DNA of 10,482 nucleotides from an uncultured archaeon. Lineage in GTDB: Archaea; Asgardarchaeota; Thorarchaeia; Thorarchaeales; Thorarchaeaceae. The translations under genes were made by a program, and so were the position numbers. The DNA is taken from NCBI GenBank assembly GCA_964631415.1, contig CAZVZC010000053.1, positions 1 through 10,482 on the forward strand. The letters are read 5' to 3'. Of this stretch, positions 3,884 through 9,017 are shown piece after piece. Numbering within the stretch: the stretch's first letter is position 1; every line of letters starts with the position of its first letter. The notes under the pieces are model-generated. The model saw nothing but the letters and a program-made list of their open reading frames with translations, made no database searches and had not been told where the DNA came from.

Positions 3884-4381
3884 GTGTCAGTCGTGTCAAG
3901 TGAATCCGAGTCATTTGCGTATCTCAACCCCGAAGAGCGCCTGAAGAAGTACAAGGAGTTCTTGGCGTCTCTGGAAAGAGAGGACGCGGCAGAACGACAC
4001 AGACATGCTGGCCATCCATCGGGAACCCAGTCAAAGGTGGTGCCGGCCCGACAGGAATCCGCAAAGACAGACTCGCATGATGGGCATGAAACTGCTAGCC
4101 TGAAGCCCTGTGGCGCGATATCAGGCCGACAGAAGGAACCAGAGGCAAAGGCTGCAGAAGAGAGGAATCGAGTGCTGCTGAGAGTCAAGCAGCGTGCCGT
4201 TGAGTCCGAAATAGACGAGATCCGCAGAGAGAAGGCTCAGCTCGAGAGGAAGCTAGAGAGAGGGCATATTAAGCAGGATGCGTATCAGCAGGAACTCGAG
4301 CAACTCGTGAAGCGGGGTCAGACCCTGCTTCGTAGAAGGCTCGACGTCGCCAAAGAGCTGAGCGAAGTTGCCGACGACTGA
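3884..4381 (+). CDS. Hypothetical charged coiled-coil protein
   Basis: 165-aa ORF with a GTG start. It has an N-terminal amphipathic helix (PEERLKKYKEFLASLE), a low-complexity middle and an E/K/R-rich heptad C-terminus, and overlaps the next gene by 14 bp. The start is uncertain. Confidence 0.75.
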   Translation: MSVVSSESESFAYLNPEERLKKYKEFLASLEREDAAERHRHAGHPSGTQSKVVPARQESAKTDSHDGHETASLKPCGAISGRQKEPEAKAAEERNRVLLRVKQRAVESEIDEIRREKAQLERKLERGHIKQDAYQQELEQLVKRGQTLLRRRLDVAKELSEVADD

Positions 4382-5006
4382 ACGCAAGAGCGTTGGCGTC
4401 CTTGGTTTTGGAGACAGCTTGACTGCTGGAACACCCGGTTATGACCCCACAACTGGCTACGGGAATCAGCAGTCGCAGTATGGGTACTGGCTTGTCAGGA
4501 AGGCAAGAGAGGCGCGACAGCTGACTCTGGAGTTCGACAATCAAGGTGTTCCGGGTGAACTGGTCCGACATATGCTTCAACGTCTGCATAGCATCTTGAC
4601 TAAACACAGCTATGCCATCATCGTTATTCTTGGCGGCAGCAACGACTTGGGCTGGGGCGATGAACCGGACAGAGTGTTCGGTCACCTGAAGGACCTCTGG
4701 CAGTATGCGCTGGATAAGGGATCGGATGTCATTGCATGTACAATACCCCCTGTCGGAATGGCCTATCCTCCGCTGCAAGAAGCTCAGTTCCGATTCAACG
4801 ATATGATTGCCGAAGCATCGCGAGAGCAGGATTCTGTGCTGCTTGTCGATCTGTTTGCAGCATTGTCCAACGAAAGAGGACTCCTGCGGGCGGAGTTCGA
4901 CAGTGGCGATGGCCTGCACATGAATGAATACGGTTACAGGCAGATGGGTGAGAGCATCTGGATGGAGGGTATCAAGCGGATGCTGGACTCATCTCGTATT
5001 CGCTAG
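4368..5006 (+). CDS. SGNH/GDSL hydrolase (lipase/esterase family)
   Basis: All four blocks are present: FGDSLT, NQGVPGE, GGSNDL and DGLHMNEYGY. TTG start. Confidence 0.93.
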   Translation: MPTTERKSVGVLGFGDSLTAGTPGYDPTTGYGNQQSQYGYWLVRKAREARQLTLEFDNQGVPGELVRHMLQRLHSILTKHSYAIIVILGGSNDLGWGDEPDRVFGHLKDLWQYALDKGSDVIACTIPPVGMAYPPLQEAQFRFNDMIAEASREQDSVLLVDLFAALSNERGLLRAEFDSGDGLHMNEYGYRQMGESIWMEGIKRMLDSSRIR

Positions 5007-5028: not shown

Positions 5029-5122
5029 TAGGGCACCATTATGGGTTGCCAGCACAATACAATCACACAAAAATGAAATACGCCCAGTCACCAGAGGCGT
5101 TCTAGTAGCCGGAGGACCTGCT

Positions 5123-6037
5123 GTGAGTGCGAAGCGCCGACTCCCAAAGACAAGCCGACTGGCCTTTGTCAGCACCATATGCGATATGAGCAGGCGCGGC
5201 GATATCGATGCAGTCATAGGCACCTTCGAGGGCTACTGGACAGACAAGACTCGCTATCCTTGGCAGAACACGTACACACTACTGGAAAAGTACTGGGCGC
5301 TAGAGAATCCTGAAACAGACGTATCGGAAACACTACTGCTGCTTCGTGATGCCGTGTTCGGAGCCCTCGGACTTCACTCACTCAGTCTGCCACTTGAGAT
5401 ACCGACACAAGAGGTCTTGAAGAGAATCATGAGAGGACGCTCATGGAAAGACTCTCGTCGGTCAGTCAGAGAATACCTTTCTCAGGTCGTATCTGACATG
5501 GTTGAGCATGGTCAAATAGCTCATCTCATCCCTTCTGGATTGAGGCATGATGGGTTGGGATTCCTTCTGCCCGCCCTAGAAAAAGCTCGACTTGACGAGT
5601 TCCGGAATGCACGACCAAAGACAACACGCGGCAAGTTCGATCTTAGACCTCTGTCGAAGTCGGTCATTGGCCGGACACTTCTAAGGCAGCTATCGATGAA
5701 GACCGAGAAGCTTGCAGAGGATGATCCCCAAGTGGGGCAGGTAGAAGAAGCGTATGAACATATGCTCTTGGACCTCGAAGTCGGTGAAGGAGTGGCGACT
5801 TTGTCACCTGATGAGACTCTGCAGGTGACAATCAGCGGCGAGCCTCTTGAAGAAACGACCGAGAGAAAGCAGGCTCGAGGGGTCCTTCCACTTACCCCTG
5901 GGGTGCAGACTAACCTAACAGAGTATGTTGGGCCGCCTGCAGATTCGCGAAGTCCCGAGAAATCTGACGACAGCGAAAGCCGAAGGGGCAAGAAACGAAA
6001 GAAGGTTGAGGGCAATACCGGAGATGAGGAGTCATGA
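5123..6037 (+). CDS. Hypothetical protein, 304 aa, helical N-terminal domain and disordered tail with PIP-box-like and basic motifs
   Basis: Long ORF with a GGAGG RBS at 5111-5115 before the GTG, and an ATGA stop/start overlap with the next gene. No family recognised. Confidence 0.85.
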   Translation: MSAKRRLPKTSRLAFVSTICDMSRRGDIDAVIGTFEGYWTDKTRYPWQNTYTLLEKYWALENPETDVSETLLLLRDAVFGALGLHSLSLPLEIPTQEVLKRIMRGRSWKDSRRSVREYLSQVVSDMVEHGQIAHLIPSGLRHDGLGFLLPALEKARLDEFRNARPKTTRGKFDLRPLSKSVIGRTLLRQLSMKTEKLAEDDPQVGQVEEAYEHMLLDLEVGEGVATLSPDETLQVTISGEPLEETTERKQARGVLPLTPGVQTNLTEYVGPPADSRSPEKSDDSESRRGKKRKKVEGNTGDEES

Positions 6038-7569
6038 CTCGGGTGGCAAAACGCAAAGCAGGGACAAAGAGGAAGGCAAAGCCACCGAGCTTGGACGAGA
6101 TTGAGGCCGCCGCTGTCGCCGGCCTTCGAGATATTGCTTGGCGTCTCGACTCTCCTGACATGGCAGTAACGTATGAGGCGGCAGCTAAGATGTCCACGTT
6201 TCCTGTGACGAGGTCTCTGCTCCCTAGGGCCATGAGCGCCATCAAAGCTGACGACCCGATTGTCCGGAAGGCCGCCTTGGGGATGGCTGGAATGAACGCC
6301 TACGGCTCATATGTCAATGAACTGGTGACGCTGATGAAGGGCGTGAACCCGGCTGATCGCGAGCAGGTCCTTCAGGTCATCGAACAGAGAATGAGACAGA
6401 CTGGGGGACTTGGGTCTACTTCGGAGCAGAAGCGGTGGGTCGACGCGCTTGAAGGACTTGGCAGAGAGCACCAGCCCACGGTTTTTGGCATCATGGCACT
6501 TCTTGGACCACAAGGGACTCAGTGGGTGAGAACGCTGATTACTGAGAGAGTGGAAACCTTGCACCCAGGTGCAGTCCAGAGACTGACTGCCTTCACCGAA
6601 CCGACTCGCGACGCATTGCTGAAGGGTTTGTGTCAGAGGTCTGCAGAGAAGAAGCGTGAGTTGCTGCCATATATCTGCGGGTTGATTGACACAAAGACGA
6701 TTCAGTATCTCACACCCTTCCTGAAAACGGGCGACTGGCATGATAGATCTGAGGTTGCGGAAACTGTGGGAAAGCTGGGCATCATCTCCCCGGCCGGAAT
6801 TGTGATGGACATAGTCGCTGATGCCGACTGGCGCGTCAAGCAAGCGTTCTTGAAGGACCTGAACATTGCATCGTCGAAGTTCGCGGCCTTGCTGAAGATT
6901 CTCGGATACCTTGTCGGGGATTCACACACAAGAGTGGGAGGACTGGCTGAGAGGTGCCTGCTAAGACTGGGGTCTGAGCTGTGTCGTGGCTCCACAATCG
7001 AGGCGCAGCAGAAGAGGATCGAAAAGGAGTTCAGAGCGCATCTTCTGAAAGCTGCAGATGCTAACAAGGACATCCAGTCAGACTGGCTTGGTGTGAGCCT
7101 TGTTGAAACATTCCCTATTCCAGTCTTCTCCGAGCAGGAAGAAGAGTTGACTAAGGGCATCGAGAGAGCCCAGGGTGTGAGTCTAGAAGACATTGGAGGT
7201 CCTAAGCCGGGTGCTGCGCCAGAAACCCCGAAGAAGGACAGTCGTTTCGATCTGATGGCTGCTCTCATTGGTGCTCGCCAAGCCGCCAAAGCTCCGGAGG
7301 CTCCTCAAGAGCAAGCATCTTCGTCGACAGAACATGTTTCGCCTCTTCCGGTTTCGGGTTCGACTCCAACAGACCGATTCATGATGCTGCTGAGGAGTAT
7401 GACAGCGATATCCGGGAAGGAAGTCTCCATCTCCAAGCTGAAGGAGAACGCCGTTTCATCGGGGCTGACAGAGCAGGAGTTCGACACCACACTTGAACAG
7501 CTTGAGCGGGATGGGATTGTCTATCGCTCAAGAAAGGGTTCAGTAAGCATTGTCGACATCGAAGTCTAG
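6034..7569 (+). CDS. HEAT-repeat protein with a C-terminal winged-helix domain
   Basis: HEAT-like units include DDPIVRKAALGMAG, GDWHDRSEVAETVGKLG, DADWRVKQAFLKDL and GDSHTRVGGLAERCLLRLG. A P/A/E/S-rich linker leads to the C-terminal GLTEQEFDTTLEQLERDGIVYRSRKGSVSIV. GAGGAG RBS at 6026-6031. Confidence 0.8.
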   Translation: MTRVAKRKAGTKRKAKPPSLDEIEAAAVAGLRDIAWRLDSPDMAVTYEAAAKMSTFPVTRSLLPRAMSAIKADDPIVRKAALGMAGMNAYGSYVNELVTLMKGVNPADREQVLQVIEQRMRQTGGLGSTSEQKRWVDALEGLGREHQPTVFGIMALLGPQGTQWVRTLITERVETLHPGAVQRLTAFTEPTRDALLKGLCQRSAEKKRELLPYICGLIDTKTIQYLTPFLKTGDWHDRSEVAETVGKLGIISPAGIVMDIVADADWRVKQAFLKDLNIASSKFAALLKILGYLVGDSHTRVGGLAERCLLRLGSELCRGSTIEAQQKRIEKEFRAHLLKAADANKDIQSDWLGVSLVETFPIPVFSEQEEELTKGIERAQGVSLEDIGGPKPGAAPETPKKDSRFDLMAALIGARQAAKAPEAPQEQASSSTEHVSPLPVSGSTPTDRFMMLLRSMTAISGKEVSISKLKENAVSSGLTEQEFDTTLEQLERDGIVYRSRKGSVSIVDIEV

Positions 7570-7667
7570 GCTGACGTGTTCCGTCTTCTCGGACAAGAAA
7601 CAAGTTTCGATGGGCAAAGACTAATGTGCTGGGTCTACATGAAACGCATGTAGGCGAGGTGCCGCAT

Positions 7668-9017
7668 ATGGTCCAGTCGGTTTTAGTCAAGGGTGGCTTG
7701 GTAGTGACCGGGGACTCTCAGGGCAGAGTGATCCCTGGCGGCTTTGTGAGGATTGAGGGAAACAGGATATCTGAGGTTGGCAAGGGAATACCTCGCCTGA
7801 AGTCAGACGAAACCATAGACGCATCGAGGAATGTAATCATCCCGGGTCTGATAACAGCGCACACACATCTCTATGGCATTCTCCTAAGGGGCGCGACCCT
7901 TGGCATAGAGCCCCCTACAGACTTTGCCCAGGTCCTTCAGCGCGTGTGGTGGCCTCTTGACGAAGCTCTGACCCTTGATGACGCAAAGGCTAGCTCTCTG
8001 GCTGCATCAGCAGACATGCTCCGCAATGGATCTACATTCTATGCGGATACCTATTCAGGTCCGAACTCGATTGACGGTGTGCTGGACGGTATTTCGGATG
8101 CCGCCTCCGAAGTGGGCATCCGTTCAATGCTGGCGTTTGAAATCACTGAACGAAACAGCCCCCAAGAAGCGGAGCGCGGTCTGCAGGAGAATGTGAGATT
8201 TGCTCAGCGCTGTTTCAAGGAGAAAGGCCTCTCGTCAGCGATGATGAGCCTCCACGCCTCGTTCACGGTGAGCGATGAGCTCATCACAAGGGCAGTGACA
8301 CGAGCATCTGGCCTCGAAATCCCTGTGACCATCCATACTTCTGAAGGCCTGGTGGACGTTTATCACAATCTTGAGAAACACGGAGAGAGGACAGTCGAGC
8401 GTCTAAACAGACTCGGTGTGCTGAAACGTCGTACTGTACTGGCTCACTGCGTACATGTCACTGCGCCAGAGATTGAGATGATGGCGCGGCAGGGTGTGGG
8501 TGTCGCGCATAACCCAATGAGCAACATGCTCAATGCGGTCGGTACTTCGCCAGTACCCGACATGCTCGCACGACGAATCCCGGTTGGTCTTGGCAATGAC
8601 GGTTGGATCTATGACCCGTTCGAGAATATGAGGTGTGCATTGACGGTTCATCGGCTTGCAGCATGGAACCCCAGCGTCATGACTGCCGAACAAGTGTTCA
8701 GAATGGCCACTCTTGATGGGGCCCGATGCTATGGGCTTGACCGGGAGCTGGGTAGCATCGAAGCTGGAAAGATGGCGGACATCGTTCTCCTTGGTGTTTC
8801 AAGAGTGCCGACGCCACTCGATGCCAGTTCGGTCATTGGCCACCTAGTCAACACATTCGGCGGCAGGGATGTGGAACGTGTGATTGTTGATGGAAGAACC
8901 GTTGTAGACCATGGGCGACTGTCACTGATTTCAGATGACGAAGTCGCAAAGAGATGTCAGAAAACGACTCAGGACCTATGGTCAAGACTATCAAAAAGAA
9001 GCACTAAGAAACCGTGA
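7668..9017 (+). CDS. Metal-dependent amidohydrolase, SsnA/MtaD(TRZ/ATZ)-like deaminase family
   Basis: Metal-ligand motifs HTHLY, LHASFT, IHTSEG, AHCVH and GLGNDG, plus HNPMSNMLNAVG and GSIEAGKMADIV. FAQVLQRVWWPLDEAL resembles the SsnA subgroup. The ATG at 7668, preceded by GAGGTG (7656-7661), is preferred over the GTG at 7626. Confidence 0.92.
   Translation: MVQSVLVKGGLVVTGDSQGRVIPGGFVRIEGNRISEVGKGIPRLKSDETIDASRNVIIPGLITAHTHLYGILLRGATLGIEPPTDFAQVLQRVWWPLDEALTLDDAKASSLAASADMLRNGSTFYADTYSGPNSIDGVLDGISDAASEVGIRSMLAFEITERNSPQEAERGLQENVRFAQRCFKEKGLSSAMMSLHASFTVSDELITRAVTRASGLEIPVTIHTSEGLVDVYHNLEKHGERTVERLNRLGVLKRRTVLAHCVHVTAPEIEMMARQGVGVAHNPMSNMLNAVGTSPVPDMLARRIPVGLGNDGWIYDPFENMRCALTVHRLAAWNPSVMTAEQVFRMATLDGARCYGLDRELGSIEAGKMADIVLLGVSRVPTPLDASSVIGHLVNTFGGRDVERVIVDGRTVVDHGRLSLISDDEVAKRCQKTTQDLWSRLSKRSTKKP

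Follow-up and report, generated by a model that had tools for sequence, protein, structure and literature searches.

Organization of the locus

The stretch of DNA analyzed here (hereafter the window) comprises 10,482 nucleotides (nt) and constitutes contig CAZVZC010000053.1 (C53) of the 2.16-Mb, 85% complete genome of an uncultured archaeon of the family Thorarchaeaceae. It carries two adjacent genes, designated A and B, whose products are proposed to act as partners. According to the list of open reading frames (ORFs), gene A (5123-6037, + strand) starts with GTG and encodes a protein of 304 amino acids (aa) belonging to no described family; gene B (6034-7569, + strand) starts with ATG and encodes a HEAT-repeat protein of 511 aa with a C-terminal winged helix. 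A Shine-Dalgarno-like GGAGG motif (5111-5115, +) could be read in the sequence 7 nt upstream of the GTG of gene A, and GAGGAG (6026-6031, +) is found just upstream of the ATG of gene B. The two genes overlap in the ATGA tetranucleotide (6034-6037, +), in which the TGA stop codon of gene A (6035-6037) shares letters with the ATG of gene B (6034-6036). A previous examination of the bare DNA (the sequence-only reading) had described two large genes, each with a ribosome-binding site, joined by an ATGA overlap, and this description was confirmed. The GTG start of gene A is additionally supported, since the related proteins start with MSKK at the same alignment position. Scans of the window with Rfam and for tRNA genes, bacterial-type promoters and terminators revealed nothing relevant.

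Distribution and linkage of A and B

The relatives of both proteins carry the NCBI name Candidatus Thorarchaeota, so the assignment of the DNA to a probable Asgard archaeon in the sequence-only reading was right. Of 24 genomes sampled from the same family, 23 contained gene A and 23 contained gene B, and in most of these both proteins are free of internal stops. Neither was found in the genomes of 13 other sampled families, with the sole exception of a weak match (genome G038, E 4.6e-6) to the winged-helix tail of B. In a run of the A profile across the phylum (251 genomes), the family was positive in 55 of its 59 genomes and the 191 others gave one marginal match (E 0.002). A search with the same profile of 1.84 billion representative proteins returned 45 matches, 33 of them below 1e-30; for B, 60 relatives were collected, nearly all labelled Thorarchaeota.

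Each of the 20 neighbourhoods fetched showed A next to B in the same order, hence the linkage in relatives that the sequence-only reading had proposed to check is present. The spacing in the 18 loci measured ranged from a 4-nt overlap to a gap of 54 nt, and approximately half of them had the 4-nt overlap. The pair is a part of a recurring block, DUF362 - (small ORF - GDSL) - A - B - amidohydrolase, which is syntenic within the family. In several genomes (e.g., loci L026 and L035) the flanking genes have dropped out or moved, and the A–B pair has stayed together.

Protein A has a folded domain with no relative found

No match to A was found in Pfam (E up to 0.1) or NCBIfam, in agreement with the sequence-only reading, which had assigned the two genes to no recognisable family. 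In the structure model, based on an alignment of 27 sequences, residues 10-221 (5150-5785, +) form a mostly helical domain with a predicted local distance difference test score (pLDDT) of about 90-97, which also bears the predicted B-contacting surface, and residues 222-304 (pLDDT < 60) are modelled as a disordered tail. Searches for relatives of this fold gave a best E of 0.5 with Foldseek against the Protein Data Bank (PDB), a best Z of 4.4 with VIA wide/VIA-align against 48,161 chains and a template modelling score (TM-score) of at most 0.31 in the ESM Atlas fold search. The ESM Atlas feature search gave no usable match, and the A profile retrieved nothing from the PDB sequences at E up to 10. 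The fold of A is thus one for which none of the searches found a relative; that it is a novel fold does not follow from them. No catalytic domain is visible in A.

Protein B joins a HEAT solenoid to a winged helix resembling that of MCM

The architecture of B given by the sequence-only reading, HEAT repeats followed by a flexible linker and a terminal winged helix, was borne out by both the Pfam search and the model (pLDDT 81.6). Residues 193-272 match HEAT_2 (PF13646) with E 4.9e-9 and 36.8 bits against the cut-off of 27.7, the same family is matched by 36 of 38 B relatives, and the score together with the alpha-solenoid model identifies B as a HEAT-repeat protein. NCBIfam returned nothing for B, and the ESM Atlas search led no further than the Thorarchaeota cluster of B itself and clusters of generic HEAT proteins. 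The HEAT/ARM solenoid extends over residues 20-343 (6091-7062, +), of which residues 20-131 are the predicted docking site of A. Its closest structural match with VIA was the PP2A A subunit (7xvk_A: Z 15.4, root-mean-square deviation (rmsd) 8.7, 316 residues aligned; a second match with Z 14.1), followed by IntS4 (Z 13.5), importin-alpha (Z 12.9) and Pds5 (5f0o_A, Z 9.4). The modelled solenoid is of the generic HEAT/ARM type and matches only generic HEAT/ARM proteins. A reading of B as a PBS-lyase HEAT protein, which the sequence-only reading had named as one that would refute its proposal, was rejected: HEAT_PBS (PF03130) is absent from the families found in 38 relatives at E up to 0.01.

The solenoid is followed by a linker of ~100 aa, modelled with low confidence as disordered, within which residues 404-418 (7243-7287, +) form a conserved short helix; of its residues, L407, A410 and L411 vary little or not at all in the alignment. 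The winged helix (residues 445-506; 7366-7551, +) was recognized by the model, VIA and the family profile. Residues 442-507 superimposed on the MCM winged helix 2ma3 with Z 11.3 and rmsd 1.4 Å over 66 residues, and on 2m45 with Z 10.1; RPA32C and other winged helices scored Z of ~9, within 1-2 Z units of MCM. The B family profile matched 2m45_A at E 6.7e-5. Among 38 B relatives, Pfam assigned MCM_C to 11, RPA_C to 10 and WHD_MCM8 to 10; of the MCM winged-helix families (MCM_C, MCM_WH_arc and WHD_MCM8), the B protein of the window matched only WHD_MCM8, at 17.6 bits, below the cut-off of 26. On the basis of the model, the winged helix of B appears closest to the C-terminal one of MCM. B itself was rejected as an MCM helicase, because it has no ATPase core: no AAA or MCM core family was matched and residues 20-343 are the HEAT solenoid. 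As in A, no catalytic domain is visible in B. A comparison of the winged helix with a 727-aa ORF on contig C5 of the same genome gave only E 0.047 and was not used as evidence.

Predicted A–B complex

Three runs in which A was modelled with B gave an interaction prediction score from aligned errors (ipSAE) of 0.87, 0.87 and 0.86, whereas none of three controls exceeded 0.00. The runs agreed in at least 76% of contacts, with partner pLDDT of at least 71. In the calibration, 58 of 80 solved complexes attained this mark, as did 2 of 110 mismatched pairs; the prediction used A and B alignments made for this analysis, and the calibration counts hold only roughly for it. Memory of a solved structure is an unlikely source of the score, because A has no relative in the PDB and no similar complex has been solved. 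The predicted interface, which the sequence-only reading had proposed to look for by complex modelling, brings together residues 21-30, 51-96, 133-142 and 178-193 of A with the first repeats of B (residues 20-131). The invariant residues R25, G26 and R75 of A lie within it, and the conservation of the A interface is modestly raised, at 0.62 in comparison to 0.54 for the rest of the fold (permutation p 0.015).

Two independent genomic facts agree with A–B binding. The first is that many genomes of the same archaeal family encode, at unrelated loci, paralogous proteins of 410-460 aa that unite an A-like domain and HEAT repeats in one chain. Two of these, P0114 and P0120, were aligned with the A profile by hhalign with probabilities of 96.5% (E 9.4e-10) and 94.3%, respectively; HEAT_2 is matched in the C-terminal half of the paralogues (E 3.8e-8 for P0114). 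The fused loci include G002:C49 (L065:5671-7035:-), G009:C2 (L066:6319-7551:+), G153:C1 (L067:6079-7323:+) and G011:C3 (L068:6131-7387:+), and none was found in the 85% complete genome of the window itself. The fused paralogue has neither a PIP-like tail nor a winged helix, and its HEAT part cannot be taken as specifically B-like, because the alignment of the P0114 HEAT repeats with the B HEAT profile was unreliable (hhalign probability 4.8%). The second fact is the location of the HHH_5 domain, which stands at the C-terminus of A in some lineages and at the N-terminus of B in others.

The complex model supports A–B binding rather than showing it. Together with the adjacency in 20 of 20 neighbourhoods and the fused paralogue, it sustains the proposal of the sequence-only reading that A and B are partners, and we consider it likely that the two proteins form a complex.

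The tail of A contains a conserved PIP-like motif

Outside two conserved islands, the tail of A is variable. The first island, TLQVTISG (residues 232-239; 5816-5839, +), represents a T-x-Q-[VIL]-T-L-N-G motif found in the disordered tail of 34 of 37 relatives; T232, Q234 and G239 are invariant or nearly so. Both this element and the 404-418 helix of B are situated outside the predicted A–B interface. The second island, QTNLTEYV (residues 262-269; 5906-5929, +), corresponds to the PCNA-binding-like motif noticed in the sequence-only reading and resembles the PCNA-interacting protein (PIP) box. The pattern Q-x-x-L-T-[ED]-[YF]-[IVL] is conserved in 32 of the 37 full-length relatives, with Q in 32, L in 32, T in 29, E or D in 29, Y or F in 32 and I, V, L or F in 32 of them. 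As expected of a PIP box, the motif is placed in a disordered region and conserved among orthologues, Q and L being invariant in the 32 that have it. The textbook PIP box is QXXhXXaa (PMC4929162). QTNLTEYV fits Q-x-x-[LIM]-x-x-[FY]-[FY] at positions 1, 4 and 7 and has V at position 8.

PCNA is encoded in the genome of the window (G000:C14). A scan of this genome for PIP-like motifs in the last 45 residues of ORFs found 16, two of them in known clamp clients, Fen1 (XPG_N and XPG_I domains) and Nre (Nre_N and Nre_C domains), with the C-termini QSALSDFL and QTHLTEFL, respectively. In the light of these two motifs, which for their part have an aliphatic residue, L, at position 8, the QTNLTEYV of A is very close to the local PIP style. 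In Haloferax, the PIP motif of NreA is needed for its repair function (PMC4929162).

The C-terminal tail of A also includes a basic cluster, RRGKKRKK (residues 287-294; 5981-6004, +). In the relatives, the PIP-like motif is followed by 8-24 Lys/Arg residues, the tail has a median net charge of +11.5, and the next 20 residues one of +5.5; the latter value is -1 in the protein of the window.

A separate arrangement was noticed at L069:3800-4060 (GCA_014728035.1), where A and B are in one reading frame with several stop codons between them. The intervening stretch contains the decayed remnant DEKELTHY at the site expected for the PIP-like motif, and B begins with HHH_5.

A–B as a possible clamp- and DNA-tethered scaffold

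In the proposed mechanism, A and B would constitute a heterodimer in which the orphan-fold helical domain of A docks on the first HEAT repeats of B. By means of the PIP-like box in the tail of A, the complex is probably attached to the sliding clamp PCNA, and the Lys/Arg-rich stretch behind it, or the helix-hairpin-helix domain in some lineages, probably touches DNA. The ~100-aa linker of B ends in the MCM-type winged helix, which probably recruits a replication or repair protein or binds DNA. Since no catalytic domain can be recognised in either protein, the function is most likely that of a scaffold or adaptor tethered to the clamp and to DNA. What the computations show are the two genes, how far they are conserved and linked, the domains of their products, the conservation of the motif and a predicted A–B contact surface; PCNA binding, DNA binding and the role in the cell are what we infer. 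The chances that the tail of A links the complex to PCNA are evenly balanced. The whole reading, which places A–B at the replication or repair sites of Thorarchaeota as such a tethered scaffold or adaptor, is advanced tentatively, as one that falls just short of an even chance. Of the sequence-only reading, the suggestion of a clamp- or DNA-linked complex thus remained plausible, owing to the PIP-like motif, the MCM-type winged helix and the HHH_5 domain of some lineages; the analogy to the HAWK/kleisin chromosome machinery was not supported (see below).

Several observations weigh against such a role. Both the HEAT solenoid and the winged helix are types of interaction module of a generic kind. 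The B side of the predicted interface shows no greater conservation than the remainder of the solenoid, and a part of the A–B adjacency reflects shared ancestry, because the whole block is syntenic. The conserved neighbours (DUF362, GDSL hydrolase and SsnA-like amidohydrolase) are metabolic, with no replication gene among them. The PIP-like motif is missing in 5 of the 37 relatives, and in the L069 lineage its region has decayed into in-frame stop codons. Across the family, position 8 of the motif is I, V or L, while the textbook consensus has an aromatic residue there. The tail of A in the window has a net charge of 0, with an acidic patch, SPEKSDDSES, preceding RRGKKRKK, and the flanks of the motif (±7 residues) have a median net charge of 0, the same as in the protein of the window. 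The charge of the flanks strongly tunes the affinity for PCNA, positive flanks raising it, and negatively flanked motifs have been argued to bind PCNA poorly (PMC6881253).

A more specific version sees in A–B an undescribed, lineage-specific and non-catalytic complex that is accessory to the replisome or the repair machinery of Thorarchaeota. Such a complex would work as a clamp-to-helicase adaptor, reaching PCNA via the PIP-like tail of A and the MCM/RPA network via the borrowed MCM-type winged helix, with a fold not seen elsewhere and without a counterpart in other archaea or eukaryotes. This version is possible, although somewhat unlikely.

Alternative explanations

The strongest competing explanation is that the A–B complex serves as a general protein–protein scaffold unrelated to the clamp or DNA, e.g., a regulatory or assembly platform similar to the PP2A A subunit, in which the conserved motifs of the tail and the winged helix would dock other partners. 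The best structural matches of B (PP2A A subunit, IntS4, importin-alpha and catenins), the metabolic neighbour genes, the absence of basic residues in excess at the immediate flanks of the A motif and the frequent binding of proteins by winged helices all speak for it. It accords less well with the match of the A motif to PIP boxes of its own genome at 6 of 8 positions, with the recruitment of HHH_5, a DNA-binding domain, to the module in several lineages, and with a winged helix whose closest match is the MCM tail. We regard this explanation as unlikely, though as a serious competitor.

Alternatively, the solenoid of B could be an importin-alpha-like receptor or chaperone of basic peptides (histones, ribosomal proteins or the Lys/Arg tail of A) with no relation to DNA. 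The top Foldseek matches were indeed armadillo proteins with (KR)n peptides and importin-alpha with nuclear localization signal peptides, and the end of A and the start of B are Lys/Arg-rich in the genus of the window. However, the TM-scores of these matches were at most 0.33, such matches are generic for solenoids, the predicted interface uses the folded domain of A and not its basic tail, and the family consensus does not conserve the basic N-terminus of B, all of which makes a receptor of this kind improbable.

The recurrence of the order DUF362 - (small ORF - GDSL) - A - B - amidohydrolase across the family, with the amidohydrolase gene behind B on the same strand at most loci, raised the idea that A–B serves the neighbouring DUF362 protein, GDSL hydrolase and SsnA-like amidohydrolase, e.g., as their assembly or regulatory factor. 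Yet in L026 and L035 the neighbours are lost or moved and A–B stays together, neither A nor B resembles an enzyme or a cofactor-binding protein, and the PIP-like motif, HHH_5 and the MCM-type winged helix point elsewhere; a role of this sort seems quite improbable.

Finally, the comparison of A–B with the kleisin and HAWK subunits of SMC complexes, hinted at in the sequence-only reading, was not supported. B does combine HEAT repeats with a winged helix, and its many structural matches include Pds5 (Z 9.4) and, for the winged helix, the C-terminal one of Scc1 (Z 9.0). However, PP2A-A, IntS4 and importin-alpha all score above Pds5, as does MCM above Scc1 among the winged helices. A has no kleisin family match (Pfam, E up to 0.1) and no convincing match in fold, the cohesin Rad21 chain 6yuf_B scoring at noise level (Z 3.3), and it ends in a disordered C-terminus instead of a winged helix. 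No SMC gene lies within the syntenic block, and no kleisin partner was identified. An archaeal counterpart of these subunits is poorly supported and highly improbable.

Comparison with known systems

The clamp- and DNA-tethered scaffold proposed above is made of known building blocks; their combination and the domain of A have not been described, and nothing specific was found in the literature on Thorarchaeal HEAT/winged-helix or Asgard PIP/HEAT systems. The archaeal PIP clients Fen1, NreA and NucS (PMC4929162) likewise have a motif of the Q-x-x-h-x-x-a type near the C-terminus, placed in A within a disordered tail. In contrast to them, A has a fold without known relatives and no nuclease or other catalytic signature, its putative motif is located 35 residues from the end and not at the extreme terminus, and it has an obligate-looking HEAT/winged-helix partner.

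Residues 20-343 of B align over ~300 residues with PP2A-A and other HEAT/ARM scaffolds (7xvk_A, 9j5i_D, IntS4 7sn8_D and importin-alpha 2c1t_A) with Z of 13-15, at an identity of only 11-15% and rmsd of 5-12 Å, which denotes a generic repeat-protein likeness. Like PP2A-A, B is predicted to hold its partner at one end of the solenoid; unlike these scaffolds, it has no phosphatase or importin partners and adds a linker and a winged helix. The winged helix of B is similar in fold to those of archaeal MCM (2ma3, 2m45) and RPA32 (4mqv_C, 9f27), but is attached to a HEAT solenoid rather than to an AAA+ helicase or an oligonucleotide/oligosaccharide-binding (OB) fold protein.

In the large subunit of eukaryotic CAF-1 (p150/Cac1), a clamp-recruited, non-catalytic assembly factor, one or more PIP boxes occur together with a DNA-binding stretch rich in Lys/Arg and a winged helix at the C-terminus; the partners of CAF-1 are WD40 proteins and not a HEAT solenoid. 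No sequence or fold relation to A–B was found, and neither A nor B revealed an acidic domain of the histone-binding kind, no dedicated comparison having been made.

No known organisms are more closely related to eukaryotes than the Asgard archaea, whose DNA replication machinery is investigated for clues to how that of eukaryotes arose. If the proposed role is true, a new non-catalytic, clamp-tethered scaffold would join the short list of archaeal PCNA partners. A–B would also supply a well-modelled domain for which no relative in fold is known, and would clearly exemplify the reuse of a helicase tail domain on a HEAT scaffold. The reach of the finding is limited to one family, with no eukaryotic homologue, and the function is a guess.

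Other genes of the window

Directly after gene B, on the same strand as in most relatives, lies an amidohydrolase gene (7626-9017, +). Its product is closest to SsnA and to nucleoside or chlorohydrolase deaminases, below every NCBIfam cut-off. Further upstream, the coding sequence of a class I/II aminotransferase, most similar to aspartate aminotransferase, is broken into two ORFs in different frames (467-1036 and 1051-1758, +), which correspond to the N-terminal (profile positions 3-155) and C-terminal (175-358) halves. The split is a frameshift, representing either a pseudogene or an assembly error. An ORF of 165 aa and of no known family (3884-4381, +) overlaps the start of the GDSL hydrolase gene (4368-5006, +) by 14 nt, and these two may form another coupled pair, because they are kept together in several relatives.

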